45,038 bases of DNA from positions 1-45,038 of the forward strand of contig SICS01000002.1 of assembly GCA_009691305.1 (NCBI GenBank), given 5' to 3'. Below are positions 13,952-44,785 of the stretch, in pieces. The stretch comes from Candidatus Peribacteria bacterium (GTDB lineage Bacteria; Patescibacteriota; Gracilibacteria; Peribacterales; Peribacteraceae). Position numbers and translations under genes: made by a program. The notes beneath the pieces are model-generated. The model saw nothing but the letters and a program-made list of their open reading frames with translations. It was not told where the DNA came from and searched no databases. Numbering within the stretch: the stretch's first letter is position 1; each line of letters begins with the position of its first letter.

Positions 13952-14038
13952 TGGACGTCTGGAGGGTTTCATGGAGGCCTCCAAGATGTCTTGCGATGGA
14001 CTCCACCTTTGGTTGTGGAGGCCTTCACGGAGGCCTCC

Positions 14039-14692
14039 ATGGAGGATATGGTGGAGGCTATGACAGTCCCCTACCTCACAATCAGTGAAGCAGCAGAGAA
14101 GACAAGACGCTCCGAGAGCACGGTACGGAGGGTCATCCACAGTATCGCCAAAGAAAAACATCCCGATCGCGGATTATTGCAGCCGAGCATCGGTGAGGTG
14201 AAGGAGTTCAAGAAGAAAGGGGAAAACTTCACGTGGAAGATTGCCGAGGAAGTCCTGCTCCGGAATTTGCAGCGAGTCCAGGAGCAAGAGAAAAAAAAGA
14301 CCACTCCATTCTCTTCCAACGTCGACGTTGAAATCCTTGCCATGTTGAAGCACGAGCTGGAGCAGAAGAGTAAGCACATCGAAAAGCAGTGGGAGGTGAT
14401 CGCCTCCTTGAATGAGCGGTTGCGCGAAGGGAACATCCTGATGGGTACGTTGCAGAAGCGCCTGGCGATTCCGGAGGCCTCCACGCCGTCGGAATCGGTC
14501 CTGGAGGCCGTCACCCTGAAGCCCTCCCCGCCTGACCGGCGGGCAGGCGCGGAGGCCTCCGTGAAGCCCCCCAAGAAGGCCTCCAAAATGCCCTCCACTG
14601 GAGCCTCCAAGAAGGCCTCCATGGAGGCCTCCACGCACACGTCATCCAGCAAGAAGAAGAGGGGATTCTTCGCTTGGTTTAGCGGAAATTAG
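14039..14692 (+). CDS. hypothetical HTH (excisionase/MerR-like) plus coiled-coil protein with EAS/KKAS repeat tail
   Basis: YLTISEAAEKTRRSESTVRRVIHSI resembles an HTH_17-type motif. Central coiled-coil-like segment and Lys/Ser/Ala repeat tail. Start uncertain (TTG 13991, ATG 14039, 14048 or 14060). Confidence 0.55.
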   Translation: MEDMVEAMTVPYLTISEAAEKTRRSESTVRRVIHSIAKEKHPDRGLLQPSIGEVKEFKKKGENFTWKIAEEVLLRNLQRVQEQEKKKTTPFSSNVDVEILAMLKHELEQKSKHIEKQWEVIASLNERLREGNILMGTLQKRLAIPEASTPSESVLEAVTLKPSPPDRRAGAEASVKPPKKASKMPSTGASKKASMEASTHTSSSKKKRGFFAWFSGN

Positions 14693-18270: not shown

Positions 18271-18284
18271 AACCGGATTGCGGA

Positions 18285-18686
18285 TTACGAATTTCGGAAG
18301 CTTGGTCGGGCAGAAAGATATCGAATAAAGCCGCCAATCATACGCCCCAGTTTTTCTGTCAGCTCCTTGAGCTTTCGGAATGTTTCTTGATCAATGTATT
18401 GCTCATCTAGCGCATCATAAAGTTGTGCACGAACTTCGCCCGCAGATCGTTTTGCATATCCGAGAAATTGAATGAATTCAGGGTTTGTTTGTGCTTCAGC
18501 ACCTTCAGCTACGTTGTACATAATAGATCGTGCAGCACGTGTGATTTGATCAATGAATGTAAAATCTTTACGCACGTTTGGATGCCTGCAGATGGAACGC
18601 ACTTCGCGTACCAACAGCCTGGCTTCTTGCCAAATTTCCATGTCCTCGAACTTGTGAGAAGGCGTCATGAGCCCATTGTGAAGCAT
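18285..18686 (-). CDS. four-helix-bundle protein (23S rRNA intervening-sequence protein family, TIGR02436/PF05635; Avd-like)
   Basis: FEDMEIWQEARLLVREV ... QITRAARSIMYNVAEGAEAQTNPEFIQFLGYAKRSAGEVRAQLYDA matches the family pattern. The last codons (RPSFRNS) are encoded by the heptamer array. Alternative start at ATG 18668. Confidence 0.85.
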   Translation of the reverse strand: MLHNGLMTPSHKFEDMEIWQEARLLVREVRSICRHPNVRKDFTFIDQITRAARSIMYNVAEGAEAQTNPEFIQFLGYAKRSAGEVRAQLYDALDEQYIDQETFRKLKELTEKLGRMIGGFIRYLSARPSFRNS

Positions 18687-18764
18687 GAAATTTCATTGAA
18701 TAGTCTCTTAAAAAAGATTCTTGTCCGTGTGCCATATTCTTGGCTATCTGATGTGGTAAATTCA

Positions 18765-18786
18765 GTTCCACTACCCTGTGGAACAT
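18765..18786. promoter_or_regulatory. GTTCCAC-N6-GTGGAAC palindrome upstream of 4HB gene 1
   Basis: GTTCCACTACCCTGTGGAACAT, about 80 nt upstream of the 4HB start. Related 22-mers occur at 34899-34920 and 39199-39220. Confidence 0.55.
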
Positions 18787-18830
18787 CCCGCAATCCGCCA
18801 TCCGAAATCCGCAATCCGCAATTATTCCTT

Positions 18831-27616: not shown

Positions 27617-27716
27617 TATCTCGATACGTTCGTGGCTCCGCCACGAACTACTCGATATGACAGGTGCTGTCATCCCGAGTAGCCCGCAGCGGAGCTGCGG
27701 GCGTAACGAGGGATCA
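27617..27716. repeat. REP-like elements, inverted doublet (copies 2 and 3; REPIN-like)
   Basis: Reverse copy at 27617-27662 and forward copy at 27668-27716 (TGTCATCCCGAGTAGC-CCGCAGC-GGA-GCTGCGG-GCGTAACGAGGGATCA), head to head. The FemAB-type gene stop (TCA 27714-27716 on plus) lies in the last 3 nt of the forward copy. Confidence 0.75.
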
Positions 27717-28712
27717 TCCCAGGAGTTTTCTCTTCATTCGAAGCAGAGTTTTTGTGACGGGACGCAGAATGATTTCCTGCTCCGGGGGATACGTGATGAC
27801 CGAGCCGCCGAACTTGGCTTTGAATTCGCTGACGCTGGCCCAGGGGTGTTTTTTTAGTGGAGACGGCGACGTCTCCGCTTGGGGGGCGATGCCGAACAGG
27901 TCGTAGGAGGTGCAGCCGTGGGATCGGCAATACTTTATGGCTTCCCACTGCAGTAAATACGGAGCCATGAGCTCCCTGTGGGCGTTGGAGGAGGCGCCAT
28001 AGTAATACGTGGCCTGCGTGCCCCAGACGACGCCCAGGAGCCCTGCCACATGCGTCTTTTGGGCGGTCATGGCCAGCATCAGGAAGCTGCCGGGCAAACC
28101 CCTCAGGAAGTGCTCGTAGAAGGCTGCCTTGTGGCCGCGGAAGCTGTCCCTGCGTGCCGTCTCTTCTCCTAGGCGGGCATAGGCCTCGGTGTCATCCGAT
28201 TGCTCGACATCGATACCATGTTTTTCGGCCAGCCGGATGTTATAGCGGCCCTTGGGTTTCATTTGGGCGAGCAGTGCCTCATCATTCAGTGTTAGATCAA
28301 GAATCCGAGTCGCTTCAGGCATGACGAATCGGCCTGAGTTGCGAATTTCGGATTTCGGATTTCGGAAAGGTAGATGTGGTGAAAAATGAATAGTGAGAGC
28401 GCCATTCTCTTTTGCATCTGCAATGATTCTTTCTATAAAATCCGTAATCCGTAATCCGTAATCCGTAATCATAAGCGGTCCGCGCGGTATCTCCCACGTA
28501 CTCAGTCCAAGACTCGTCCTATCAATCACCACGAGAGCGGAGGCCATGATCTGCTCAGCATCCATCTGCGCATAAATCCGCACCTCGCGCTGAAGAGCTT
28601 TCTGAAATTGGCTCCATTCCAGCGACTGCCACAATGAACCTTCGGGGTGCGTCTTGATCCACTGATCATAGGCATGCAAATCCTCCGGCGATGTAAGGCA
28701 ACGAATATCCAT
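27714..28712 (-). CDS. FemAB-family peptidoglycan interpeptide-bridge (aminoacyl-tRNA-dependent) transferase
   Basis: [81 protein letters not shown] are family hallmarks. Confidence 0.85.
28342..28470. repeat. inverted CGGATTN heptamer arrays inside the FemAB-type coding sequence, read through in frame
   Basis: Plus strand CGAATTT-CGGATTT-CGGATTT-CGGAAAG (28342-28369). Minus strand CGGATTA x3 plus CGGATTT (28438-28465). Translated as [11 protein letters not shown] and [10 protein letters not shown] in the track protein. Confidence 0.8.
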
Positions 28713-28735: not shown

Positions 28736-29338
28736 ATGCCCTACACCCTCCCTGCCCTTCCCTACGGCTTCGATGCCCTGGAGCCGCATATTGATGCGAA
28801 GACGATGGAAATTCACCACACCAAGCACCATCAGGCGTACGTGGATAAGGTGAACAAGGCGCTGGAGGGAACCGAGTGGGCGGAGAAGGGGATTGAAGAG
28901 GTCCTGCAGGCCCTGGATAAGCTCCCCGCCGACAAGAAGAAGCCGGTGCAGAACAATGGAGGCGGGCATTACAACCACAGTCTGTTCTGGAGCATCATGG
29001 CTCCGAATGCCGGGGGCAAGCCGTCCGGAGATCTCGCGAAGGCCATTGATGAGGCGTTCGGTTCCTTTGAGGAATTCCAGAAGAAGTTCGAAGAGACGGC
29101 GACCAACCAGTTCGGGTCCGGATGGGCGTGGTTATACGTCGATGATAAGAAGCTCTTCCTCAAAGGCTATCCCAACCAGGACTCCCCGATCATGGAGGGC
29201 AAGACGCCAATCTTCGGCGTCGATGTGTGGGAGCACGCGTACTACCTCAAGTATCAGAATAAGCGCCCCGATTACCTCAAAGCGTTCTGGAATGTCGTGA
29301 ATTGGAAAGAAGTTGAACGACGATTCGCGGAAGCCTGA
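28736..29338 (+). CDS. sodA: Fe/Mn-family superoxide dismutase
   Basis: [32 protein letters not shown] and [18 protein letters not shown] motifs. Metal specificity (Fe versus Mn) cannot be decided by eye. Confidence 0.93.
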
Positions 29339-32367: not shown

Positions 32368-33231
32368 ATGTCCAAAAAAGTCACTATCGGCCTCGTACAG
32401 ATGTCCATGGAACATCATCCAGCCGGTAATCTGGAGTATGCCATCGAGATGGTCGCCAAAGCGGCGGACAAAGGCGCGCAGATCGTGTGTCTGCCTGAGC
32501 TCTTCCAGAGCCCGTACTTCTGCCAGAAGAAGGATGACAAAAGCGCATTCGATCTCGCAGAGCCAATCCCCGGCCCTGCAACTAAAGCGCTTTCCGAAGC
32601 GGCAAAGAAGCACAAGATCGTCCTCGTCGGTGGATCGATCTTCGAGAAGACAAAAGAGGGGACGTACTACAACACCACGCCGGTCTTCGATACCGACGGC
32701 TCGCTCCTCGGAACCTATAGGAAGACGCATATTCCCGAAGACATCCTCTATCACGAAAAACAGTACTTCAGTCCCGGCGATACCGGCATCAAGGTCTTCA
32801 AAACGAAATATGGGAAGATCTGCCCGCTGATCTGCTATGACCAGTGGTTTCCGGAAGCCGCGCGCCTCGCCACGCTCCAGGGTGCCGAGATCCTCATTTA
32901 CCCCACCGCGATCGGTGTCATCGATTCCGCAGTCGAAGAGAACATCACGGGAGACTGGGAGCAGATGTGGCGGAACGTGATGCTCGGGCATGCGGCGGCG
33001 AACAACGTCTACGTGTGCGGCCTCAATCGGGTGGGCACCGAAGGCGCCATCACCTTCTGGGGCGGCTCCTTTATAGCGGCGCCGAGCAGCGAGGTCCTCG
33101 CGAAGGCGGGTAATAAGGAGGAGATCATCCTGGCGGTATGTGATCTTGACCGGGTGAAGGCGATACAGGAGGCTTGGATGTTTTTGAAGAATAGGAGACC
33201 GGAGGTTTATGACGGACTTACGAAGCACTAA
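32368..33231 (+). CDS. aguB: N-carbamoylputrescine amidase (carbon-nitrogen hydrolase family)
   Basis: Nitrilase-superfamily Glu/Lys/Cys blocks (IVCLPELF, YRKTHIP, ICYDQWFPE). Adjacent to agmatine deiminase. Confidence 0.85.
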   Translation: MSKKVTIGLVQMSMEHHPAGNLEYAIEMVAKAADKGAQIVCLPELFQSPYFCQKKDDKSAFDLAEPIPGPATKALSEAAKKHKIVLVGGSIFEKTKEGTYYNTTPVFDTDGSLLGTYRKTHIPEDILYHEKQYFSPGDTGIKVFKTKYGKICPLICYDQWFPEAARLATLQGAEILIYPTAIGVIDSAVEENITGDWEQMWRNVMLGHAAANNVYVCGLNRVGTEGAITFWGGSFIAAPSSEVLAKAGNKEEIILAVCDLDRVKAIQEAWMFLKNRRPEVYDGLTKH

Positions 33232-33316
33232 GCACTAAACTCTAAGCCCTAAACAATATCTCAATTCCCAATGAAAAAAATTGTTTAGGATTTAGTACTT
33301 AGGATTTAGAATTTCG
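33221..33316. repeat. gene-less hairpin made of inverted heptamer arrays (CTAANNN units)
   Basis: Left arm CGAAGCA-CTAAGCA-CTAAACT-CTAAGCC-CTAAACA (33221-33255), 26-nt loop. Right arm on minus CGAAATT-CTAAATC-CTAAGTA-CTAAATC-CTAAACA (33282-33316). The aguB stop lies in the left arm. Confidence 0.8.
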
Positions 33317-34391: not shown

Positions 34392-34420
34392 GGAAAAGAA
34401 ACCGGAAACCAGAAGCCAGG

Positions 34421-34801
34421 TTAGGTGAGGGGTTGAGGTTGAGGTGTGTAGTATTTTTGGATGATGGAATGGAAAATAAGTTTCAAACTTCGAGCTTCTT
34501 TCAGGAGCGATAGTCGCTCTTGCTCAAGAGCTGGTTCAAGTCTCATATCAAACATGTCTAACCAGAACATGGATTCCTTTGCCTCCTTCCGGGAAATTTT
34601 CAGATGGTATGCACAATCTTTCTTTGTGAACGCTTCGTTGGCCTCAATATAGTTAGCACCGACAGAACCTGATGATCGAAGGAGCTGTTTTGCGTCATCA
34701 GAGTAGGCAAGTTGCTTCGGCAATTGATGGAGCCACCGGCGGATGTTTTTGCCAAAGTCAGCAGTCCTTTCGGCCAGATCCTGTCTTTCAGCATTCGTCA
34801 T
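34421..34801 (-). CDS. four-helix-bundle protein (23S rRNA intervening-sequence protein family; Avd-like)
   Basis: QLLRSSGSVGANYIEANEAFTKKDCAYHLKISRKEAKESMFWLDMF matches the family pattern. The C-terminal TPQPQPLT is encoded by the flanking repeat array. Confidence 0.8.
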   Translation of the reverse strand: MTNAERQDLAERTADFGKNIRRWLHQLPKQLAYSDDAKQLLRSSGSVGANYIEANEAFTKKDCAYHLKISRKEAKESMFWLDMFDMRLEPALEQERLSLLKEARSLKLIFHSIIQKYYTPQPQPLT

Positions 34802-34898
34802 GCCATTACCATATGTGACTTACAGATGGCGGAAACGCAGTTAGAAATAGAAAAAATGATCGTGCCTAACTTTTTATCTAATGTAAGCCAAAAAATCA

Positions 34899-34920
34899 GT
34901 TCCACACCCCCATGGAACAT
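34899..34920. promoter_or_regulatory. palindrome GTTCCACACCCCCATGGAACAT upstream of 4HB gene 2
   Basis: Identical 22-mer at 39199-39220. About 100 nt upstream of the 4HB start. The adjacent block 34869-34890 is 19/22 identical (inverted) to 39228-39249. Confidence 0.6.
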
Positions 34921-34997
34921 ACCCCATACCTTGTACTTTACCCGGCTTCTAAGACCTGGATTCTCGTACCTTTTGCCGATTCTCGTCACAAATTCAT

Positions 34998-39075: not shown

Positions 39076-39190
39076 TACCCCCTCCCCCAGCCCCTCCCCC
39101 TGAGGGGAGAGGGGAGTTGGGGTATCTCCACAATTCAACAAGCCCCTTTCTCCCGCGCACGGGGGAAAGGGGTTGGGGATAGGGGGTTTT
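39076..39190. repeat. CCCCNNN / GGGGNNN heptamer-type hairpins after rpoB
   Basis: TACCCCCTCCCCCAGCCCCTCCCCCTGAGGGGAGAGGGGAGTTGGGGTA (39076-39123) and CCCCTTTCTCCCGCGCACGGGGGAAAGGGGTTGGGGATAGGGGG (39143-39186). May also act as the rpoB terminator. Confidence 0.6.
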
Positions 39191-39196
39191 GAGTGG

Positions 39197-39260
39197 ATGT
39201 TCCACACCCCCATGGAACATCCGAACGTGGCTTACATAAGAGTAAAAGTCTCCATCTCAA
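39197..39260 (+). promoter_or_regulatory. cassette-type palindrome plus conserved leader block, oriented toward ssb
   Basis: ATGTTCCACACCCCCATGGAACAT (39197-39220) followed by TGGCTTACATAAGAGTAAAAGT (39228-39249). Both match the region upstream of 4HB gene 2. Confidence 0.55.
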
Positions 39261-40724: not shown

Positions 40725-41385
40725 TTTTTGAGAAATGTTACTCATCGCAACACATGGATGCCTCGACTCTGCATTCCGATGAAGGACGTGGCCAGCAACG
40801 ATATGCTTCGGTGAGCCGCTAGGCAGGCGTTACCAGCCGAAGATTTCCGAATGGGGAAACCCCACGAGAGTTCTGTCTCGTGATCCGCTCACGCGGAAGG
40901 TCACTCTGTGAACTGAAACATCTCAGTAACAGAGGAAAAGAAATTAAATTAAAGATTCCCCCAGTAGTGGCGAGCGAACAGGGATCAGCCCAAACCGCGT
41001 ACTTGTACGCGGGGTTGTAGGACCTCGATATGTGATTCCTTCCTTTATAGAAGAACGTCCCTGGAACGGGCGGCCATAGAGGGTGATAGCCCCGTAAGCG
41101 AAATAGAGGAAGACACTAGAGGAATCCTGAGTAGGGTCGGACACGTGAAATCCGGCCTGAATCCGGGTGGACCACCATCCAAGGCTAAACAGATGCAGAG
41201 ATCAATAGCGGATAGTACCGTGAGGGAAAGGTGAAAAGCACCCCGGAAGGGGGATGAAATAGTCTCTGAAATGTGTTGCGTCCAAGGAGTCGGAGCGGAC
41301 TTGTTCCGTCACGACGTTCCTTTTGCATAATGAGCCAACGAGTGTGTTCTCAGTGGCGTGGCTAAGGCAGTTTCCTAGCCGGAGC

Positions 41386-41417
<32 letters not shown>

Positions 41418-41812
41418 TCGCTGGGACACGACCCGAAACCGGGTGAGCTATCCATGAGCAGGTTGAAGCCCGCCGAAAGGCAGGTGGAGGACCGAACCAT
41501 AGCGTATCGCAAGACGTTGGGATGACTTGTGGATAGGAGTGAAAAGCTAATCGAACCCGGAGATAGCTGGTTCTCCTCGAAATGCCTTTAGGGGCAGCCT
41601 CGTCGGGCACGGCGGGGGGTAGAGCGACTGTTTGGATGCGGGAGTCACCTCGACTTACCAAATCCTGACAAACTCCGAATACCCGCCTTTAATGCCGACG
41701 GGAGTGAGACAGTGGCAGCGAATTGCCATTGTCGTAAGGGAAAGAGCCCTTACCATTCGCTAAGGTCCCAAATTATCGTTCAGTGGGAAAGGTGGTGTAT
41801 GTGCATCAACAA

Positions 41813-41843
<31 letters not shown>

Positions 41844-42177
41844 TAAAGAAAGCGTAACAGCTCACTGGTCGACGCACGTATGCGCCGAAAACTCAACGGG
41901 GCTAAACGATAAACCGAAGCGGTGGATCTCCTATGTCCTTCGGGACGTAGGTGGTGGTAGAGGAGCGTTCCGTTCAGCTGTGAAGCAGTGTTGTGAAGCA
42001 TTGTGGAGCGTACGGAAGCGAGACTGTTGGCATGAGTAACTACTAGGCAGGTGAAAACCCTGCCCGCCGAATCCCCAAGGTTTCCCACGCAACGGCAATC
42101 GGCGTGGGGTTAGTCGGTCCTAAGGTCAGGCCGAAAGGCGTAGCCGATGGATAACAGGTCAATATTCCTGTACTTCT

Positions 42178-42345
42178 CGGGAATCGATAAAAGGGCGGTC
42201 GTTGAGAGTTTTACGAGCCTCTGTCTCTACCATTTTGTACATATACATAGACGCAGGTCTTCGACCTGCGGATCGCGCGTCGAAGACGCGCGCTATGTGT
42301 CCAAGATGGTAGAGATATGTTCGCGAAAAAGGATACTTCCGTTCT
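42178..42345 (+). other. ~150-nt insertion / expansion segment in 23S domain III
   Basis: Between CCTGTAC and GTGACGGGATGGGAAG, E. coli and Bacillus have about 25-30 nt and this gene has about 175 nt. It contains stem 42224-42233/42306-42315 enclosing two hairpins (GCAGGTC-TTCG-GACCTGC and GCGCGTC-GAA-GACGCGC). Confidence 0.6.
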
Positions 42346-42801
42346 AGGAGCGGTGTGACGGGATGGGAAGATCGCAGCGTGCGCATTGACTGCACGTGTA
42401 ACACGTAAGACGTTGAGAGTGGTAGGGAAATCCGCCACTTGAGTCGAGCGTGGAATCCAAATGGCTCCCGCGAGGGGGTCGAGTGCGTACCTTTCCGTCT
42501 CCAAGAAAACCATCGCTCACAGAGTTCCGGGAAACCGTACCGCAAACCAACACCGGTGGGGTGGTCGAGTAGACCAAGGCGAACGGGAAAACTCGCGTTA
42601 AGGAACTCGGCAATGAAGCGTCCGTAACTTCGGGATAAGGACTACCAGTCTGTAGTGGATTGGTTGCAACAAAAGAGGTCAGGCGACTGTTTATCAAAAT
42701 CACAGGTCCCTGCTAAGCTGCAAAGCAATGTATAGGGGCTGATGCCTGCCCAGTGTCAGAAGGTCACGTAAGGGGGTTTACGCCTCCGAACTAAGCCCTG
42801 A

Positions 42802-42855
<54 letters not shown>

Positions 42856-43044
42856 GGTCGAATAACCCCGTACCAGTCGCGCTTCGGCGCTCCGGTACAG
42901 GGCATGCTTGCCCGAATGATCAGCAATGATCAGCACTGAGGAATTTTTTCTAGATTTTGATAGTAAGTCTCGCGGTCGAGACCCGCGATGCCCCAAGCGA
43001 AAGCAAAGGGCGATCTCATAATTATTTTTTTGTTGGCGCCGAGC

Positions 43045-43062
43045 GCAGGCATACTTGCCTGC
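43045..43062. repeat. GCAGGCA-TACT-TGCCTGC hairpin inside the intron
   Basis: Exact reverse complement of 5044-5061. Confidence 0.6.
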
Positions 43063-43494
43063 AAAGAGTTAAGGAATCTCTCTAAAAATTCTGATTACAG
43101 ACCGTATTGTGGATACCATTCACCCCACGTCGCTCGCTTCGGCGAGCTATGCGGGGCAAACAGTGTAAAACGTCGCCATATGCTGGAACATCCGAGTATC
43201 CCCTATGCCGTAAGGTACGGGGTGCGGACAATCAGCAGGAAAGAATTTCTTATTTTTCTTCCATTCATTATGACACGTACCAAAGAATCTCCGGCTCTCG
43301 ACGACAAGCAATTGCCGAAGGGAGTAGATGGATACAATCTCGCCTTGATTGAAGCGGCACCTGCTGCCATTTGGCAGTTAGGTTTTGCAGAGATATGCGG
43401 GAATTACCGTCAGGAAATTCAGGAGTGCGGTGCATTCAGTGAATCGGATAATAAGAACTGATCCTCAGAGACTTTACGCGATGCCCGCGACTTG

Positions 43495-43540
43495 TTCCTC
43501 GTTACGCTCGTGACTCTGTCACGAGCTACTCGGAATGACA
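43495..43540 (-). repeat. REP-like element copy 6, in the P8 loop of the intron
   Basis: Minus strand reads TGTCATTCCGAGTAGC-TCGTGAC-AGA-GTCACGA-GCGTAACGAGGAA. Flanked directly by the P8 stem CCGCGAC/GTCGCGG. Confidence 0.75.
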
Positions 43541-43621
43541 GTCGCGGAGATGATAAAGTCCGATCCCTGTGGCGACACAGGGCGCGCGAAATTGAAGCGC
43601 GGCTAAAAAACAATCGTTATG

Positions 43622-43667
43622 TCCCTCGATACGAAAATCGCTCGGCGATTTTCTACTCGGGATGACA
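43622..43667 (-). repeat. REP-like element copy 7, in the 3' peripheral region of the intron
   Basis: Minus strand reads TGTCATCCCGAGTAG-AAAATCGC-CGA-GCGATTTT-CGTATCGAGGGA. Confidence 0.7.
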
Positions 43668-43725
43668 TAGGTGTAAGTGCGCTCCTGCAAGGGAGATCTC
43701 GGTTCACCACCGAGAGGAACGCGCT

Positions 43726-43790
43726 GAATTGAAAATTGATAATTGAAAATGGGAAATTATTTTCCATTTACCATTTTTCATTTTTCATTC
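43726..43790. repeat. AT-rich inverted heptamer-array hairpin near the intron 3' end
   Basis: AATTGAA-AATTGAT-AATTGAA-AATGGGA-AATTATT facing, on the minus strand, AATGAAA-AATGAAA-AATGGTA-AATGGAA. Confidence 0.7.
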
Positions 43791-44361
43791 GCATGTTTAT
43801 GAAGTTCCGACCCGCACGAATGGTATAACGGTCTGATCACTGTCTCGACGCGAGGTCCGGTGAAATTTCAATCCTGGTGCAAATGCCAGGTAGACCACGG
43901 TAGGACGAAAAGACCCTATGAAGCTTTACTGTACGCTGACATTGTTTCGTTGATTTGCGTGCGCAGAATAGGTGGGAGGCTTTGAGGCTCTAGCTTCGGT
44001 TAGGGCGGAGCCAACTTTGAGATACCACCCTCGCGTTTCGCCGAAACTCACCCTGTCTCTGAAACAGAGCGGGGGACAGTGTTTGCCGGGCAGTTTAACT
44101 GGGGCGGTTGCCTCCTAAAGTGTAACGGAGGCGCGCAAAGGTCCACTAGCGCCGGATGGAAATCGGCGTTGTCGTGTAATCGCACAAGTGGGCCTGACTG
44201 TGAGACTTACAGGTCGAGCAGGGACGAAAGTCGGTGATAGTGATCCGGCAGCCGGACAACTTATACTTGTCCTTACCACGTGGGTGGGCTGTCGCTCAAC
44301 GGATAAAAGTTACTCTAGGGATAACAGGCTGATCGGTTCCAAGCGCCCACAGCGACGAACC

Positions 44362-44478
<117 letters not shown>

Positions 44479-44518
44479 TGGCCTCTATCCTCCGTGGTCA
44501 CTTAGAAACGTGAAGAAA

Positions 44519-44551
<33 letters not shown>

Positions 44552-44609
44552 AACCTCTGGTGTACCTGTTGTCGCGTCAGCGGCATTGCAGGGTAGCTAT
44601 GTTTGGACG

Positions 44610-44642
<33 letters not shown>

Positions 44643-44785
44643 CCTTCTGAGATTGCGTTTCTCCATCAGCCCGCCGGAAGACGACCGGCTAGATCGGCCA
44701 CAGATGTACGTGCGGCAACGCATTCAGTCGAGTGGTACGAACGGGCAATTGAACATTTTTCAACCTTAGCCTTTAACAGCTAGGG

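Follow-up and report, generated by a model that had tools for sequence, protein, structure and literature searches.

The femAB gene of a Candidatus Peribacteria bacterium contains two inverted arrays of a 7-nt repeat, both of which are read through in frame. The gene was analysed within a 45,038-nt stretch of contig SICS01000002.1, hereafter called the window. [quoted passage not shown] The copy would be tolerated as loop residues of the enzyme and kept repetitive by concerted evolution at the DNA level. Among orthologues, the arrays are old in position and young in sequence, and one arm usually matches the other. The pair does not appear to be a mobile insertion with cargo, or to act mainly as a phase-variation switch. 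The features of the gene are as follows.

27714..28712, minus strand: intact gene for a 332-aa FemAB-family aminoacyltransferase (PF02388; FemX/FmhB structures).
28439..28470, minus strand: arm A, 5' in the mRNA; 4.6 heptamers at gene nt 243-274, encoding aa 81-92.
28370..28438, minus strand: native FemAB sequence that separates the arms (about aa 93-115) and makes up the loop in the predicted hairpin.
28342..28369, minus strand: arm B, 3' in the mRNA; minus strand CTTTCCG AAATCCG AAATCCG AAATTCG.

Read directly from the plus strand, positions 28342-28369 are CGAATTT CGGATTT CGGATTT CGGAAAG, within which Tandem Repeats Finder (TRF) identified 3.1 copies of ATTTCGG with 100% matches (28345-28366). 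The other array (28439-28470) was identified as 4.6 copies of AATCCGT, also with 100% matches, and reads GATTA(CGGATTA)3CGGATTT on the minus strand. The two arms are inverted, 28 nt long, 82% complementary and 69-74 nt apart. The 332-aa open reading frame (ORF) continues in frame through both; the core of arm B (gene nt 347-371, window 28342-28366) codes for aa 116-124 (FRNPKSEIR). The original prediction, made from the sequence alone, had described inverted CGGATTN arrays read through in frame inside a FemAB-type gene, and the sequence, TRF and the ORF translation confirmed this description. It had also assigned the units to the family found at the ends of a second locus in the window, a cassette built around a PF05635 gene:

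18274..18298, unstranded: left terminal array of the PF05635 cassette, CGGATTG CGGATTA CGAATTT CGGA.
18285..18686, minus strand: PF05635/TIGR02436 four-helix-bundle ('23S rRNA intervening sequence protein') gene (Pfam 4e-31; TIGR02436 1.7e-30).
18788..18822, unstranded: right terminal array of the PF05635 cassette, CCGCAAT x5 (TRF).

Searching with CGGATTNCGGATT and allowing at most one mismatch returned 10 matches in the window against 0.38 expected, a number reached in 0 of 100 shuffles. All six matches outside femAB were at the two cassette ends (18274-18293 and 18792-18818), and the arm pair was found at further loci, so that the assignment of the femAB units to the cassette family holds. 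The cassette (18273-18822) has inverted arms of 25 nt (18274-18298 and 18794-18818; 84% complementary) and displays a stem-PF05635 ORF-stem architecture. The femAB pair does not share this architecture: it encloses FemAB residues 93-115. Altogether, TRF reported nine period-7 or period-14 arrays in the window, comprising six or more units.

Membership of the host protein in the FemAB family was established along its full length by the family profile and by solved FemX/FmhB structures. The ORF matched PF02388 at 1e-43 (150 bits versus a cut-off of 24), phmmer retrieved structures 6snr, 3gkr, 4ii9 and 1lrz, and the solved Weissella FemX structures could be aligned over residues 3-289. In this structure alignment, the stretch enclosed by the arms pairs with FemX ...VDEAVKALDGRAYVLRFDPEV; all 30 orthologues that were aligned conserve it. 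The protein has 332 aa, compared with 335-343 aa for FemX (3gkr/4ii9). Two earlier suggestions, of a native segment and of no gain in total length, were therefore correct. An AlphaFold model built on the orthologue alignment had a mean predicted local distance difference test (pLDDT) score of 91.4 and placed helix 89-102 and strand 105-110 between the arms with high confidence. The score dipped to 66 in block 81-90 and to 77 in block 111-120, with a further dip in block 281-290 and a mild reduction in block 121-130. In the model, arm A is coil as far as residue 88 and then enters the initial turn of helix 89-102, and coil spans residues 111-122 around arm B. Modelling had been proposed as a way to see whether the encoded peptides are surface loops, and both were indeed found in coil or low-pLDDT regions. 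According to the model, each arm separately overwrites a tolerant surface loop, aa 81-92 on one side of the native helix-strand unit and aa 116-124 on the other.

These results argue against the proposal that an array-ended mini-element has been domesticated in frame. Read literally, it fails because nothing foreign is enclosed, the segment being a conserved FemAB helix-strand, and because protein length is normal. Orthologues with single arrays, with unrelated pairs and with arrays at three further loops also speak against it. We also rejected the idea that the enclosed segment is bypassed in translation or excised from the RNA, since it is the conserved helix-strand of the fold.

More than 2500 homologues of the window FemAB were found, the nearest named ones coming from Candidatus Peribacteria/Peregrinibacteria (49-66% identity). 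At both array positions, the peptide differs in nearly all close orthologues and has a 7-residue period (for example MENGEWRMEN...FSILNSQFSIS; WNLESGIWNPES...KIPDSKFQIRNS; LSTFHFQLSTFHFPLSTFHFQLST). DNA was fetched for 80 orthologue loci (L001-L080), 48 of which could be analysed for stems. Heptamer arrays, typically of about 31 nt and made of lineage-specific units, are carried at the two loops in Peribacteria orthologues. The original prediction would have been contradicted by identical peptides encoded in non-repetitive DNA; the orthologues instead combine different peptides with different repetitive DNA. A chance or protein-level repeat was rejected because the peptides differ from lineage to lineage while the DNA periodicity and complementarity persist.

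In 15 of the 48 loci, the best regional stem was an inverted heptamer-array pair at the same position as in the window, in which arm 1 begins 15-23 nt from the first base of PRGP and the loop measures 70-101 nt. Eight unit families were identified at femAB stems: ATTACGG (the window), GGAATAT, AAGTGGA/AAGTTGA, AGCTTTN, GGACTTA, GAATCTG, GGGAGTA and the widespread AATKGAR. Covariation of the arms was assessed by comparing the complementarity of each arm to its own partner and to 47 foreign partners. The own partner outscored all 47 in 10 of these 15 loci, and the foreign partners that won elsewhere mostly had a unit family in common with the arm tested. Where both sites held clear arrays, 9 of 11 pairs were complementary, none was direct and two were unrelated (L011 and L023). 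The orthologue closest to the window protein by peptide is P0005; the DNA comparison was made instead with L110 (P0006), the nearest relative with retrievable DNA (66% identity). Its units are ATGACGG/CCGTCAT, versus ATTACGG/CCGAAAT in the window, and one unit position therefore differs throughout all units of both arms.

In a rough tree, neighbouring branches differed in their units, and AATKGAR recurred in several distinct clades. No pair was present in distant orthologues (33-40% identity; Gracilibacteria, for example), several of which carried an array at site B alone. Peribacteria orthologues devoid of arrays were 5-10 residues shorter across the array region; the interval from PRGP to KGRYN is 83 aa in the window versus 75-78 aa in these proteins and 74-103 aa in the distant orthologues. 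Arrays recur at five sites of FemAB orthologues (residues ~48-57, 81-92, 112-127, 214-222 and 277-288 in window numbering), all of which are hairpin turns or loops in the AlphaFold model.

Some orthologue loci showed additional arrangements. L012 (10167-10933) contains four arrays of one unit family forming nested inverted pairs, and L014 (10658-10906) has a direct pair of GAAAGCC arrays in FemAB. In L043 (10690-10880), a hairpin of about -97 kcal/mol is formed by a G-rich and a C-rich arm that lie on either side of the conserved PIAGLIG strand of FemAB. The neighbouring, divergently transcribed ORF for an Fe/Mn superoxide dismutase (SOD) also carries an AATTGAA-type array in several Peribacteria (L018 7682-7699, L021 7276-7306, L032 6948-6976, L054 6301-6328 and L035 9899-9929). 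The SOD array encodes ...NGKLKIEN..., apparently a beta-hairpin as judged from the window SOD sequence, and is complementary to the femAB site-A arm located ~0.4-1.1 kb away. The SOD of the window itself (28736-29338) has no array.

The femAB arms are one copy of a sequence found elsewhere in the same organism. In Logan contigs from five freshwater metagenomes, k-mer depth was 53-77 over the (AATCCGT)n array versus 6-8 in the femAB flanks, and contigs from other loci, with unrelated flanks, had a CGGATTT arm connected to an AATCCGT one by a 9- or 11-nt loop. Because of this depth excess and of the contigs from other loci, we conclude that the arm pair, including its systematic one mismatch per 7 bp, is dispersed in the organism. 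Joints reported as 'skips 75/81' were considered as possible femAB deletions and rejected, as they correspond to other loci with equal arms and different flanks.

A survey of 1.285 Mb of Peregrinibacteria DNA (loci L001-L080 plus the window) indicated that period 7 is the commonest class of tandem repeat, with 216 arrays and a further 61 of period 14, while periods 6 and 8 accounted for 62 and 73 arrays. Inverted pairs numbered 54 in this DNA and were present as short-loop intergenic hairpins, as 400-1200-nt cassettes and as in-frame copies in other genes. An inverted partner was commoner than a direct one (43 versus 18 of 232 arrays). Arrays of 31-32 nt hold five copies of a 3-4-nt core, 7 nt apart. 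The lengths of period-7 and period-14 arrays showed a sharp mode at 31-32 nt (~4.5 units), in coding and non-coding DNA alike. This mode is common to assemblies produced by different assemblers, as judged by contig naming, and hints at a length-setting process or constraint. L051 (8574-8657) provides a short-loop hairpin within an unrelated 309-aa ORF.

In the explanation we favour, the femAB arms enclose no inserted DNA and both are translated as arbitrary loop residues. Their repetitiveness and the matching of the arms would be maintained by concerted evolution of the DNA, through slippage in 21-nt steps within the ORF combined with gene conversion, either from dispersed copies or between the arms. 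For femAB, the arrays would essentially be a resident selfish or structural repeat, and any effect on the mRNA, such as providing a target for a double-strand RNase, would be a by-product. Maintenance at the DNA level is suggested because many arrays are perfect despite saturated genome divergence, because the window arms copy the mismatch pattern of the whole family, because fresh pairs exist that are not complementary (L011, L023) and because the stem mismatches have no preference for G.U on the sense strand.

Several observations weigh against this explanation. Of the 193 arrays that measure 24 nt or more, 66-70 are in FemAB, which makes up only ~6% of the DNA examined; this is more than simple tolerance would predict. 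This enrichment is the main argument for femAB being special; the excess probably reflects in part the vertical inheritance of a few old events. Many of the Peribacteria orthologues examined have only weak or decayed stems, a situation that fits decay and renewal. Gene conversion and slippage are steps that we infer. Finally, selection on pairing could account for the 9 complementary arm pairs out of 11 and for the perfect stems of 21-28 bp found in L004 and L018.

Selection on pairing is at the heart of the main alternative, which we consider possible, if rather unlikely, and in which the arms would form a selected cis-acting hairpin of the femAB mRNA. Such a hairpin would act as an RNase III-type target or as a translation-coupled stability element and tune synthesis of the cross-bridge enzyme, the heptamer arrays serving as the genome's raw material for stems. 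The femAB sense RNA folds to -38.3 kcal/mol (z -4.2), and the predicted stem, which single-stranded DNA could also form, consists of four 6-bp blocks with 1x1 A.A mismatches between them, around a 70-nt coding loop. The conserved position and covarying arms across Peribacteria are consistent with a functional hairpin, as is the strong enrichment of FemAB for arrays. The polarity of the femAB arms is also that of the PF05635 cassette (5' ATTNCGG, 3' CCGNAAT), and the first tandem heptamer of the PF05635-bearing Coxiella IVS is where RNase III cuts (PMC4990558). However, a stem score of at least 11 is kept in just 15 of the 48 orthologue loci, L011 and L023 have fresh, non-pairing arrays at both sites, and distant clades have an array at site B alone. 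Cleavage inside the ORF would also destroy the message, and no RNA run was found to hold the gene. An excess of G.U was sought among the sense-strand stem mismatches and none was found: femAB stems had 1 G.U versus 11 A.C, the mismatches there being A.C rather than G.U, and PF05635 cassettes 22 versus 24, counts that are small and non-independent. The mRNA hairpin was one of three possibilities raised by the original prediction, next to the mini-element and a phase-variation switch, and the interpretation as a whole is partly supported; for the hairpin, folding potential and arm covariation stand, and the G.U bias on the sense strand is absent.

The link between the femAB arms and the PF05635 cassette raises another alternative. 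Relatives of the cassette protein were searched for in one genome per species, and 29 loci were recovered (L081-L109). In about 20 of the 29, from at least 12 phyla, the gene is flanked by inverted arrays that repeat every 7 nt and whose units are specific to the lineage. Among the hosts are Verrucomicrobia, Planctomycetes, Cloacimonadota, Flavobacteriales and other Bacteroidota, Ignavibacteria and Acidobacteria, as well as Nitrospirales, Chlorobiaceae, Desulfobacteraceae, Acidithiobacillus and Victivallaceae. L081 encodes a Peribacteria PF05635 homologue (85% identity) flanked by the CGGATTN unit, as in the window cassette. Examples of flanking units in the other hosts are GTTCCAG (Fimbriiglobus), TTTCTCG (Bryobacterales) and TCAGTAA/TCAGCCG (Acidithiobacillus), and further array cassettes with PF05635 occur in the Peregrinibacteria loci L032 (17586-18247) and L050 (8798-9263). 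In the literature, within incomplete coverage, we found no account of heptamer arrays in Peregrinibacteria or of PF05635 genes with inverted heptamer flanks.

An exact search for (CGGATTA)3.4 (loci L111-L230) returned arrays in more than 120 genomes of many phyla. Of 125 such arrays, 29 had an inverted partner, mostly 20-150 nt away, and a PF05635-like ORF was present within 400 nt in just 1 of the 80 examined. The hosts are as diverse as Vibrio, Shewanella, Chloroflexota, Bacteroidota and Streptomyces, and further lineages of the candidate phyla radiation (CPR) are among them; some arrays reach 155 nt. These matches need not be homologous because heptamers are an over-represented repeat class in bacteria (PMC4692102); the distribution could stem from convergence within this common class or from horizontal spread, and convergence is as likely as relatedness.

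The arrays could be cognate sites of a factor that acts in trans and would bind or process every array of its unit in the genome, including those in femAB; the PF05635 protein encoded by the cassette would be the most plausible candidate. We regard this as highly improbable. The inverted heptamer flanks of PF05635 loci across phyla are in agreement with it, as are the CGGATTN unit common to the window cassette, its L081 homologue and femAB, and the five regularly spaced cores of the 31-32-nt arrays. Against it, the (CGGATTA)3.4 arrays are widespread and have a PF05635 neighbour in 1 of 80 cases, and the unit of the L032 cassette differs from that of L032 femAB. Avd, a homologue from diversity-generating retroelements (DGRs), is a nucleic-acid-binding pentamer. 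A related idea, speculative and with little probability in our view, is that the ~31-nt arrays would be actively written or maintained sites recognised by the PF05635 proteins that they enclose, which may be Avd-like and possibly pentameric. If this were true, the femAB arms would draw a cross-bridge enzyme into a dispersed, factor-dependent network of RNA or DNA processing in CPR bacteria, and the lineage-specific units would reflect co-evolution of factor and site and not passive concerted evolution.

Slipped-strand phase variation, in which gain or loss of one unit in either array would shift the femAB reading frame and toggle cross-bridge synthesis, was judged very unlikely. The frameshift arithmetic put forward in the original prediction is sound. 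The 7-nt unit is not a multiple of 3, and simulated changes of 7 or 14 nt in either array (one or two units) truncate FemAB with a stop at aa 91-145; a 21-nt change stays in frame. Heptamer tracts are reported to be phase-variable in Haemophilus, for instance those of hmw1A (PMC8262952), and the heptamer copy number of the Coxiella IVS varies between strains (PMC4990558). Like these contingency loci, femAB has within its ORF a repeat whose unit length is not divisible by 3, so that a change by one unit causes truncation. Unlike them, its tracts are very short (3.1 and 4.6 units) and belong to a genome-wide, mostly non-coding family, whose 31-32-nt length mode is the same in coding and non-coding DNA. 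The heterogeneity expected of a switch was not seen: all 79 recoverable orthologue ORFs are in frame, and contigs from five metagenomes in three studies have the reference copy number, a check made on assembled Logan contigs of six runs holding the locus, in which rare variants are dropped. One contig covers the whole femAB array region with 0 gaps. The target would furthermore be a cytoplasmic housekeeping enzyme. An assembly artefact was rejected because the sequence is identical in five metagenomes and because arrays occur across several assemblers, as judged by contig naming.

DNA inversion (an intragenic inverton) or a cargo-carrying mobile mini-element, in which the arms would flip or move the enclosed segment, could be suggested by the 22-28-nt inverted repeats around a short segment and by the equal ends that bound a gene cassette, but is extremely improbable given that the enclosed segment is native and conserved, that simulated inversion creates a stop at codon 92 or 98, and that no inverted or excised form of the femAB locus was present among the contigs of the five metagenomes. 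An enzyme able to write or move the arrays was sought by Pfam scans of ~35 window ORFs, which recognised only housekeeping genes and no recombinase, transposase or reverse transcriptase.

The split, in-frame array pair that we favour can be compared with several known repeats. STRRs are likewise made of tandem 7-nt units, as the femAB arrays are (period 7, 3.1 and 4.6 copies, 100% matches). They also come as several unit families per genome, dispersed, mostly intergenic and often inverted so as to form hairpins, and they occur within structured RNAs, the window example being the hairpin in its 23S insertion (43727-43789). Calothrix heptamers are known, and STRR arrays lengthen a helix in RNase P RNA; arrays inside the RNase P RNA gene of heterocyst-forming cyanobacteria were reportedly described by Vioque in 1997. 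The femAB host differs in being a member of the Peribacteria/Peregrinibacteria (CPR) and not a cyanobacterium, and the named STRR units are different. The window class has a modal length of ~31 nt, and its femAB copy is in frame at a position fixed throughout the class, with turnover of the unit; to our knowledge, STRRs have not been described in this form within an enzyme gene.

Rickettsia palindromic elements (RPEs) are selfish palindromes inserted in frame in protein-coding genes (PMC10969869). The femAB arrays resemble them as a dispersed palindromic repeat that lies in frame in a housekeeping ORF and is translated at sites tolerated by the fold. In contrast to RPEs, which are contiguous ~150-bp insertions with a conserved family sequence and peptide, the femAB arms are 7-nt arrays split by native coding sequence, with little or no added length and no conserved peptide. 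The 23S IVS of Coxiella contains a PF05635 ORF and, at an RNase III site, 2-3 tandem GACAGAT heptamers whose number depends on the strain (PMC4990558). IVS with an S23p/PF05635 ORF (Coxiella, Leptospira) have inverted terminal stems with heptamers, an architecture found in the window cassette 18273-18822, with which the femAB arms share units and polarity. The femAB copy differs in having no PF05635 ORF, in lying outside rRNA and in enclosing host coding sequence. Repetitive extragenic palindromic (REP) sequences and bacterial interspersed mosaic elements (BIMEs) are extragenic palindromes that are not built of tandem units and are linked to REP-associated tyrosine transposases (RAYTs). They too are species-specific dispersed hairpin repeats evolving in concert; their extragenic location, lack of tandem units and RAYT linkage set them apart, and no RAYT gene was seen among the window ORFs scanned.

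By definition, the femAB pair thus belongs to none of STRR, RPE and IVS. We have not seen described the combination of split arms, a class-wide fixed position, lineage units that change together and a link to PF05635 in many phyla. Heptamer repeats have been known to be over-represented since the cyanobacterial STRRs, and we know of no accepted mechanism or function for them. The femAB locus offers a natural experiment in this respect, with ~31-nt arrays at two codon-level positions across a CPR class and units replaced in each lineage, in concert in the two arms. It makes the rate and mode of array renewal measurable, be it slippage, conversion from dispersed copies or selection on pairing. 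It also links three things that have been treated separately, namely dispersed heptamer hairpins, the stems of PF05635 rRNA IVS and in-frame palindromes of the Rickettsia type. A practical point for annotation is that peptide repeats of seven residues in CPR proteins, like contigs that break at arrays, are to be taken as products of DNA repeats, not as protein motifs.

A second, divergent PF05635 gene is located at 34421-34801 (minus strand; Pfam 1.4e-10) within 34397-34967. This region has an AGAAACC-type array on one side and a weak inverted match at the far end (14 nt, 86%), and looks like a decaying PF05635 cassette. The palindrome (AT)GTTCCAC-N6-(G/A)TGGAAC(AT) occurs three times in the window (18765-18784, 34899-34918 and 39199-39218), with 0 expected. 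Two of the copies lie ~80-100 nt upstream of the two PF05635 genes, between gene and outer array, and the third (39199-39218) is in the rpoB-ssb spacer. It was also found upstream of the 85%-identical PF05635 gene of L081 (666-685), and could serve the cassette as operator, as promoter or as RNA hairpin.

Two further inverted heptamer-array hairpins were identified in the window:

33223..33314, unstranded: intergenic inverted heptamer-array hairpin with AAGCACT-type and TTTAGGA-type arms and a loop of ~30 nt.
43727..43789, plus strand: heptamer-array hairpin at the 3' end of the 23S insertion, AATTGAA x4.6 / ATTTTCC x4.4 (TRF).

The first folds to -24.6 kcal/mol (z -5.0), with 5 bp and 2 mismatches per 7 nt; the second folds to -23.3 kcal/mol (z -4.0), and its unit family is that of the femAB arms of other Peribacteria. 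The 23S rRNA gene (40731-44762) measures 4032 nt compared with a 2925-nt model and has an insertion of ~945 nt (~42857-43800) after GTCGGGT, near what we take, from our own alignment, to be E. coli position 1926. Within this insertion, 43125-43582 gave a sub-threshold match to a group I intron (Intron_gpI; 29 bits, E 2.8e-5), and the ORF at 42988-43461 had no Pfam match. ORF 13991-14692, also with no Pfam match, contains a repeat of period 12/24/36 (GGAGGCCTCCA...) at 14551-14634 that is unrelated to the heptamers. Just after rpoB, the regions 39078-39116 and 39150-39190 hold CCCCCT x4, then GAGGGGA x2.1, then ...GGGGGAAAGGGGTTGGGGATAGGGGG; these repeats are able to pair and may be a terminator-like structure or a degenerate array hairpin.

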